DNA of 9,150 nucleotides from assembly GCF_003334255.1 (NCBI RefSeq), contig NZ_QOWU01000091.1, one strand, 5' to 3'. This DNA comes from Escherichia coli. GTDB lineage: Bacteria > Pseudomonadota > Gammaproteobacteria > Enterobacterales > Enterobacteriaceae. How positions within the stretch are numbered: the first letter of the stretch is position 1; every line of letters begins with the position of its first letter. Below, one piece after another: positions 3,478-4,455 of this stretch. The translations under genes and the position numbers were made by a program. Below the pieces are notes generated by a model that was not told the origin of the DNA, made no database searches, and saw nothing but the letters and a program-made list of their open reading frames with translations.

Positions 3478-3711
3478 TCAATGCTTCAGCATGTTGAGTT
3501 GCTCATCTGAAAGCCCGGTTAGCTCCAGTACCATCTTCCGGTTTATCCCGGCATTCAGCATATTGCGGGCAGTTTCCAGCTTACCTTGTTCAACGCCCTG
3601 CGCCATTCCCTGCGCCATTCCCTGCGCCATTCCCTGAGCAATACCACGCTCCAGCCCCAGCGCAATGCCTTCCTCACGCCCGCTCTGCTTCAGTTGTTCT
3701 GCCAGTGTCAT
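3478..3711 (-). CDS. Candidate intragenic, in-frame small protein (RpnS-like, 77 aa) from an internal start in the rpn 3' region
   Basis: In-frame ATG at 3709..3711 (MTLAEQLKQ...) preceded by GAGGG with 7-nt spacing on the minus strand. Established knowledge: Rpn genes have been reported to encode C-terminal small proteins from internal starts. Here it is purely a sequence-based candidate. Confidence 0.3.
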   Translation of the reverse strand: MTLAEQLKQSGREEGIALGLERGIAQGMAQGMAQGMAQGVEQGKLETARNMLNAGINRKMVLELTGLSDEQLNMLKH

Positions 3712-4455
3712 AATATTGCCCTCGTGCTGTGGCAGACGCTGCGCCAGCATCTGCAAAAACCTTACCGTCACATGTTCACTGCCGTTCAGCAGATAGTGGA
3801 ACAGGATCTGCGCCAGTTCTTCATTCAGCGAGTTCTGTATCAGTTGAACCAGCCTGTCCATCTGCATCATGAGGTCCCGGCTGCGGCTGTGTTTCATCAA
3901 CAGCGTCAGAGCCCCCATACGCCGGTGCTGCATTATCTCGTCGTCATCCAGCACCGTCACGTCCACCAGATGAAACGATCTGGTGTAGATTTTAGCAGCA
4001 AGTTCCGGATTTCTGAAACAGTCCAGCCAGTTCATGCTGTACGGGTACGGACTCCGCTCTCCGTGATAGAACAACAGCGGGATCACCAGCGGCAGCTCAT
4101 GGTGCTGTTCAAAATGGCGCTGCATCGCCGCCACCGCATATCTGAGCATTCTGAATGCCATAAATGCGTTTTCCGTGCTCTGGTGTTCCGCGAGGCAATA
4201 AATATACCCCTCTTCACCACTGACGGTCTTCATACTGAACAGCGCATCACACGCATACTGTTTCAGATCCTGATCCACAAAGGTACAGGGCTCCAGCCGC
4301 AGCGTCGACAGATCACACAACTGCCGGTATTCCGCCGGAAGATGTAACTCAACAAAATCGCGGGCCACCTCCGCTGAGGACATAAATGCCCTGAAGGCGG
4401 CATCATGCGGCGTGGGCGTATTTTTCTCTTTTCTGCTCACCGTCATCCACTTCAC
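3478..4455 (-). CDS. Rpn-family (YhgA-like) PD-(D/E)XK recombination-promoting nuclease / transposase_31-like protein
   Basis: 325-aa ORF with GTG at 4453..4455 (alternative ATG at 4444..4446). It has the N-terminal TPHDAAFRAF, the catalytic-core-like D...LAEHQS motif, and a variable C-terminus with a GMAQ repeat, as in E. coli RpnA-E paralogues. Confidence 0.85.
   Translation of the reverse strand: MKWMTVSRKEKNTPTPHDAAFRAFMSSAEVARDFVELHLPAEYRQLCDLSTLRLEPCTFVDQDLKQYACDALFSMKTVSGEEGYIYCLAEHQSTENAFMAFRMLRYAVAAMQRHFEQHHELPLVIPLLFYHGERSPYPYSMNWLDCFRNPELAAKIYTRSFHLVDVTVLDDDEIMQHRRMGALTLLMKHSRSRDLMMQMDRLVQLIQNSLNEELAQILFHYLLNGSEHVTVRFLQMLAQRLPQHEGNIMTLAEQLKQSGREEGIALGLERGIAQGMAQGMAQGMAQGVEQGKLETARNMLNAGINRKMVLELTGLSDEQLNMLKH
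3598..3633. repeat. Perfect tandem 12-bp repeat (CTGCGCCATTCC)x3 inside the rpn coding region
   Basis: Direct inspection; encodes the GMAQGMAQGMAQ stretch on the minus strand. Confidence 0.9.

Follow-up and report, generated by a model that had tools for sequence, protein, structure and literature searches.

An intact rpn nuclease gene of Escherichia coli with a predicted intragenic antitoxin and a strain-variable 12-bp repeat

Work published in 2023 established that Rpn nuclease genes can contain an antitoxin gene whose product has a variable four-residue repeat (Zhong et al., PNAS, PMC10400941). All five K-12 rpn paralogues and one C. difficile homologue make a small protein, RpnS, in addition to the full-length nuclease; in rpnA, mutating the ribosome-binding site together with M244 abolishes the small protein RpnA-S, and an internal promoter for the short transcript was reported in K-12 rpn genes (PMC10400941). 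The full-length nuclease is toxic, and RpnS neutralises it by binding to it directly. The four-residue repeats in the first helix of RpnS start 8-20 residues after the internal Met and usually combine one hydrophobic residue with charged ones or with glycine; strains differ in the number of units, on which pairing specificity depends, and in RpnC one unit added to one partner only abolishes neutralisation (PMC10400941). Here, we describe rpnL, a further member of the family, which is located on the minus strand (3478..4446) of a 9,150-nucleotide (nt) stretch of an Escherichia coli contig (NZ_QOWU01000091.1; assembly GCF_003334255.1), referred to as the window below. A first-pass annotation of this stretch, made from the sequence alone, had noted that Rpn genes are reported to encode in-frame small proteins antagonising the nuclease, in agreement with the published work, and had suggested such a protein for the window gene.

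Overall, we consider it very likely that this gene specifies a toxic nuclease and an intragenic antitoxin, and that a slippage-prone 12-bp tract resizes the shared pairing helix in both products. The family of the gene, its catalytic set, the internal start with its Shine-Dalgarno sequence, the small-protein fold, the repeat position and a polymorphism of one, two or three repeat copies were computed here. As the concept was published in 2023, the window gene is no new discovery and would not surprise a specialist, and its importance is modest. It nevertheless adds useful extras to the published picture, namely a natural 1/2/3-copy allelic series, an uncharged repeat unit (GMAQ) and a position between two truncated defence genes. 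Alleles of the same gene in the same chromosomal context that differ in repeat number are material for testing both the pairing specificity set by repeat number and the idea that phage pressure acts on it.

The open reading frame (ORF) at 3478..4455 (minus strand) is uninterrupted and would encode 325 amino acids (aa) from a GTG at 4455 in the ORF listing. E. coli Ecol_AZ146 has a 99.9% identical gene, for which the RefSeq start is the ATG equivalent to 4446, giving 322 aa, and a 93% identical homologue (P0121) likewise starts at the 4446 equivalent. Because these two agree, ATG 4446 is more likely the start codon than GTG 4455, which would add only three residues. The span proposed in the first-pass annotation stands as an open frame, although translation more likely begins at 4446. 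The protein matched the Rpn family model TIGR01784 (NCBIfam) with 174 bits against a cut-off of 52, and Transposase_31 (Pfam PF04754) with an E value of 8e-75. It shares 43-49% identity in alignment with RpnA, B, C, D and E of K-12 and scored 291 and 314 bits with the equivalog models for RpnA (NCBIfam NF007361) and PRK09956, below the 583-bit cut-off. It is therefore not an RpnA orthologue but a distinct Rpn paralogue, none of RpnA-E. Judged from these comparisons, the window gene is an intact Rpn/YhgA-like PD-(D/E)XK nuclease gene. It had looked intact among pseudogenes at first pass, and this was borne out: hsdM, epmB, an IS110 transposase gene and shosT are degraded around it (see below). 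NCBIfam FliH matches to residues 235-295 were far under their cut-offs and were attributed to the helix rich in E, Q and G. An antisense ORF (3586..4347, plus strand, 253 aa) was rejected as spurious, as the stop-free stretch is not conserved: its counterparts measure 187 aa in P0121 and between 81 and 91 aa in rpnA-E.

The Transposase_31 / PD-(D/E)XK nuclease domain spans residues 12-208 (3823..4413, minus strand). Within it, D15 (codon 4404-4402), D67 (4248-4246), E87 (4188-4186) and Q89 (4182-4180) align with D11, D63, E82 and Q84 of RpnA, whose mutation abolishes activity (PMC5350276), and are invariant in 56 homologues. In the same set, R99 and D169, the equivalents of RpnA R94 and D165, are invariant or nearly so. 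Every residue essential in RpnA is conserved in the window protein according to this alignment. In the AlphaFold model of the full protein (predicted local distance difference test, pLDDT, 80), the N-terminal part forms an alpha/beta core, whose strands lie at 44-52, 68-74, 81-89 and 120-127; it is followed by a helical middle, a long helix at 239-298 and then two short helices. A Foldseek search with this model found no significant solved relative of the full-length protein, the PD-(D/E)XK nucleases reaching E values of about 0.08 to 0.1 at best.

An in-frame ATG at 3711..3709 encodes M246 and would open a 77-aa product. It is preceded, with a 7-nt spacer, by the Shine-Dalgarno-like sequence GAGGG (3719..3723, minus strand); both had been noticed at first pass, and their coordinates held. 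M246 shares its alignment column with M244 of RpnA, and Met occupies this position in 122 of 123 full-length homologues. The motif MT[IL]A was found at the M246 column in all five K-12 paralogues and in ypaA, a stand-alone gene that begins exactly there (MTIAERLRQEG). At the equivalent position, the Shine-Dalgarno sequence is AAGGAG in rpnA, rpnB and rpnE, GGGAG in rpnD and GGGAGGGGAG in rpnC, so that GAGGG-N7-ATG in the window gene corresponds to AAGGAG-N6-ATG in rpnA. The two codons carrying it encode KE, RE, GE or EG across rpn genes. The purine-rich sequence has thus been kept while the encoded residues differ, suggesting that selection acts on the RNA signal and not on the protein. The predicted duplex of GAGGG with the anti-Shine-Dalgarno sequence (-6.4 kcal/mol) was the strongest among the properly spaced in-frame starts. 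By its place in the alignment, the putative internal start at 3711 is the positional homologue of the validated M244 start of RpnA.

The candidate in-frame small antitoxin gene, rpnS (3478..3711, minus strand), runs from this ATG to the stop codon that it shares with rpnL. An AlphaFold model of the 77-aa product, built from an alignment of 37 C-terminal domains, was predicted with a pLDDT of 88 and contains helices at 3-53, 58-65 and 69-76. The RpnA-S structure 7TH0 was the top Foldseek match to this model (probability 1.00, template modelling score 0.75-0.77, the lower value being normalised to the target) and the sole phmmer match to the product in the PDB (E 0.053), and was also recovered with the full-length model (0.7 A root-mean-square deviation over 37 columns). 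Similarly, the domain HTH_Rpn_C (Pfam PF27070) is precomputed on a 99% identical protein (P0001). A profile search of the PDB matched RpnA-S at 2.9e-14, but this result was discarded because RpnA-S was itself in the alignment, which makes the match circular. Pentatricopeptide and designed-repeat entries, which ranked higher in the PDB, were set aside, as they lacked a single significant stretch and reflected a repetitive helical composition.

An exact 12-bp tandem repeat lies within the reading frame that rpnS shares with rpnL (3596..3636, minus strand; 3.4 copies, 100% matches and a score of 82 in Tandem Repeats Finder). Its three GGAATGGCGCAG units at 3633..3598 (minus strand) encode GMAQ x3, as read in the first-pass annotation. 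By an arithmetic estimate, chance would produce a perfect self-match of 29 bases at this lag (12) only about 1e-14 times per 9 kb, and the repeat is therefore not due to chance. It forms part of nine consecutive Gxxx units (residues 256-291; 3574..3681, minus strand), which read GREE GIAL GLER GIAQ GMAQ GMAQ GMAQ GVEQ GKLE and lie inside the long helix 239-298 of the AlphaFold model. The tract begins at residue 11 of RpnS, i.e., 11 residues past M246, which falls within the published range of 8-20.

Several points weigh against reading the locus as a nuclease with its own antitoxin. The experimentally studied Rpn proteins share only 43-49% identity with the window protein, and PADLOC, which has no Rpn model, returned a weak "putative invertase" match alone. 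RpnE of K-12 is annotated as inactive though it keeps the same catalytic residues; conserved residues are therefore no guarantee of activity. A Pfam-A scan of the window protein detected no C-terminal domain. The GMAQ unit has no charged residue, in contrast to the usual published repeats, and broadens the known repeat chemistry. An internal promoter was not confirmed for the window gene, the candidates at 4017-3989 and 3960-3932 being consensus matches only that conservation does not support; the -10 element of the latter, GATAAT, sits in the codons for DDEIMQ, where rpnA-E use other Ile codons. Finally, the support for the 77-aa product comes from sequence comparison and structural models. 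The last two points also favour an alternative in which the gene has a single product (a nuclease or a "transposase"), M246 is conserved only for its structural role where a helix begins, the repeat is a tolerant coiled-coil spacer and no small protein is made. The RefSeq annotation, with one coding sequence only, agrees with this explanation, and the window gene illustrates how standard annotation misses an internal antitoxin ORF. However, a single product does not account for Shine-Dalgarno nucleotides that are retained across paralogues despite changed residues, nor for stand-alone genes of the ypaA type that start exactly at the M246-equivalent Met, and the small proteins made by the five K-12 paralogues and the C. 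difficile homologue (PMC10400941) argue in the same direction. We therefore regard the single-product explanation as quite improbable and retain the toxic nuclease with its intragenic antitoxin.

Variation of the repeat copy number between strains, which the first-pass annotation had only anticipated, was shown directly by comparison of alleles. The GMAQ unit occurs once in P0134 (L010), twice in P0001 and others (L006-L009) and three times in the window and L001, with identical flanks around the repeat in all of these. The 3-copy form was found in the window and in seven complete genomes (L001 and six others), the 2-copy form in one genome from NCBI, three assemblies from ENA and another 53 contigs, and the 1-copy form in a single contig of a short-read assembly. 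Outside the repeat, there were no differences between the window gene and the 1- and 2-copy alleles, and the loci with one, two and three copies have common neighbours (the TOTE gene, hsdM fragments, the epmB fragment and iolR). The only other polymorphism was D314A (codon 314, window position 3506). D314 and A314 were each found with two and with three copies, and therefore the copy number changed more than once or the alleles recombined. All seven complete genomes with three repeats carry A314, and the window allele (D314 with three repeats) had no exact protein match in a collection of 15 billion proteins. In the wider family, RpnS lengths in 123 homologues run 49, 53, 57, 61 and so on up to 85 aa, 121 of them being congruent to 1 modulo 4, and all gaps in the homologue alignment are multiples of four. 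A hypervariable rpn 3' end, also put forward at first pass, was seen as well: megablast matched 1587 E. coli records, 73 of them at 90-95% identity, and a listed example of these (H3) covers query bases 1-772 only. The match therefore ends where the repeat region begins, which agrees with a hypervariable 3' end.

These alleles also bear on the possibility that rpnL looks intact but is a dead remnant in a decaying island, comparable to the RpnE that is annotated as inactive with the same residues, and that its repeat varies by neutral slippage. Pseudogenes lie all round it (hsdM, shosT, epmB and IS110), and a related rpn gene in E. coli MSB1_8B (L017, 5331..6279), which stands in a different context and shares its upstream region with the window at 85% identity, is frameshifted and has an internal stop. 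Since this copy is broken, rpn genes of the window type also decay. The window gene, however, has an open frame with its catalytic residues and internal start intact, all observed indels are whole in-frame units, and independent assemblies show no other difference in the gene, which makes a dead remnant very improbable. Copy-number differences created by assembly or sequencing are hardly credible at all: although the 1-copy form comes from one short-read contig, the 36-bp tract fits well inside single reads, the 2- and 3-copy forms recur in the genomes and contigs listed above, and repeat-number variation is experimentally documented in the Rpn family (PMC10400941).

The preferred model, a toxic nuclease RpnL with its intragenic antitoxin RpnS, would operate as follows. 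Translation from ATG 4446 would yield a 322-aa PD-(D/E)XK DNA endonuclease that is toxic when unopposed, while ribosomes starting at GAGGG-N7-ATG (3711) would make the last 77 residues alone. The long first helix of RpnS would then pair with the identical helix of RpnL, giving an inactive L2S2 complex. Replication slippage would add or remove whole 12-bp units, and each gain or loss would resize the helix in toxin and antitoxin at once, so that cognate pairing would be kept while its specificity changed. By analogy with experiments on RpnA, RpnB, RpnC and RpnP2, we propose that the small protein is translated, that RpnL is toxic and is neutralised by RpnS, that the number of repeats determines specificity and that the system defends against phages.

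We also searched for RpnS-like proteins outside rpnL. The PHROG profile 5416 (66 aa, function not assigned) matched residues 21-73 of RpnS at 1e-11, and therefore small stand-alone RpnS-like proteins occur in phage or prophage data. Judged by this profile match, such phage proteins could serve as antitoxin mimics. A tblastn search of RpnS against INPHARED gave four weak matches only, two of which are large Salmonella genome contigs filed as phage and two short unannotated phage records. Within the window, tblastn found no second stand-alone RpnS-like ORF. The ORF just downstream of rpnL (3312..3473) was considered for this role and rejected, as it showed no similarity by tblastn and had no PHROG match.

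The gene sits in a mobile defence island, whose other genes include one of the YfjI family, one resembling inovirus Gp2 and one for a TOTE primase-helicase. On its downstream side lies the 3' remnant of a type I hsdM (2441..3253, minus strand; a RefSeq pseudogene), the only stretch here that intact hsdM genes match; it lacks the first ~271 codons and is truncated at either end, and neither hsdS nor hsdR is left. The rpn gene had been described as abutting the hsdM truncation point. The two are indeed close, but not strictly adjacent, as 224 bp separate the rpn stop codon from the edge of hsdM homology at 3253. On the other side, upstream of rpn, what is left of the Shosta toxin gene (shosT) is a C-terminal part (4775..5109, plus strand), which matched the PADLOC ShosT profile over positions 99-213 of 237 (E 2.8e-25). 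The ORF containing it (4729..5109, plus strand), a "hypothetical protein" in RefSeq, carries the ~111 C-terminal aa of ShosT. It is followed by an intact TOTE conflict-system gene (5127..7517, minus strand), a 796-aa ORF in which an archaeo-eukaryotic primase domain is joined to a helicase (PADLOC PrimPol, E 1.8e-141). In strain STEC346, an intact DprA-like gene (shosA) and shosT adjoin the same TOTE gene, and homology with the window ends at 4775, inside shosT; the STEC346 copy of the TOTE gene is frameshifted. From the homology edges in hsdM and shosT, we infer a ~1.5-kb rpn cassette between two beheaded defence genes. The ends of this cassette (3254..4775) have no terminal inverted repeats and no target-site duplications, and by this test it is not an insertion sequence or autonomous transposon. 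This agrees with the report that rpn genes move without defined ends (PMC10400941). The P0121 locus has the coding sequence alone in common with the window locus. Rpn-promoted illegitimate recombination, suggested at first pass for the hsdM side, is compatible with the breaks in hsdM and shosT as a hypothetical cause.

Further features surround the cassette genes. Upstream of rpnL, a promoter-like site (4477..4505, minus strand; GTGACG-17-TATCAT, with TG) was found as a consensus match only, in a scan that returned three sites against 0.9 expected, and a terminator-like hairpin with a T-run (3392..3406, minus strand), likewise a consensus match only, lies ~70 nt past the rpn stop codon. Rfam scans of the window and of the gene surroundings gave no match at the gathering threshold or at E values up to 1. 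The unannotated intergenic stretch 4536..4735 has counterparts of ~73-75% identity in some 1600 genomes of E. coli and has no Rfam match; in L002, its equivalent directly follows a UCP030791 gene and precedes a different cargo gene. The stretch may belong to the backbone of such islands or have a regulatory function in them. The hsdM remnant is followed by a fragment of epmB (1979..2287, N-terminal part only) and then by an intact iolR (906..1739), and a perfect TAAGT tandem repeat of 4.8 copies (1965..1988) lies beside the epmB fragment, at its start. An IS110-family transposase gene is represented by its N-terminal part (63..683, minus strand), which is annotated as frameshifted in matching E. 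coli genomes.

A more far-reaching joint reading would take the GMAQ tract as a contingency locus, in which units are gained and lost recurrently within one lineage and each change resets how toxin and antitoxin pair, perhaps as an escape from an RpnS mimic encoded by a phage, and would add that Rpn-driven illegitimate recombination planted the ~1.5-kb cassette and thereby inactivated two neighbouring defence systems. We consider this combination unlikely.

Among known systems, RpnA (YhgA) with RpnA-S (7TH0) shares with the window gene the Transposase_31 / PD-(D/E)XK domain, the catalytic residues and the three-helix C-terminal domain, as well as an internal Met (M244 versus M246) and a Shine-Dalgarno sequence at homologous positions. 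In contrast, RpnA is only 48% identical, and the score of 291 bits is far from its equivalog cut-off. RpnA-S has 49 aa and no repeat units, whereas the predicted RpnS of the window has 77 aa and nine units, which makes its first helix ~28 residues longer. In the pair rpnE-ypaA, ypaA is a stand-alone small-protein gene (RpnSs) downstream of rpn with the same start point, a second ORF that the window gene does not have. The plasmid-borne RpnP2 of ECOR13, which protects against T-even phages, resembles the window gene in family, gene-within-gene arrangement, mobile location and association with defence. This comparison was made from its description; the rpn genes on E. coli plasmids show ~74% nucleotide identity to the window gene, over the N-terminal part only. 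RpnC with RpnC-S is similar in having four-residue repeats (KGIE in RpnC) in the first helix of the small protein, in a number that varies between strains. However, it is only 43% identical, its unit is KGIE or IEKG instead of the uncharged GMAQ, and in K-12 rpnC lies at the panD-panC locus, unlike the window gene in its mobile defence island. Outside the family, the TAEL repeat of the HsdS subunits of EcoR124I and EcoR124II, which the Rpn authors themselves cite (PMC10400941), belongs to another protein family and determines how far apart the DNA target half-sites lie, instead of which toxin and antitoxin pair. Similar to the GMAQ tract, it is a 12-bp, four-residue repeat in a helical spacer, and its change between two and three copies alters specificity.

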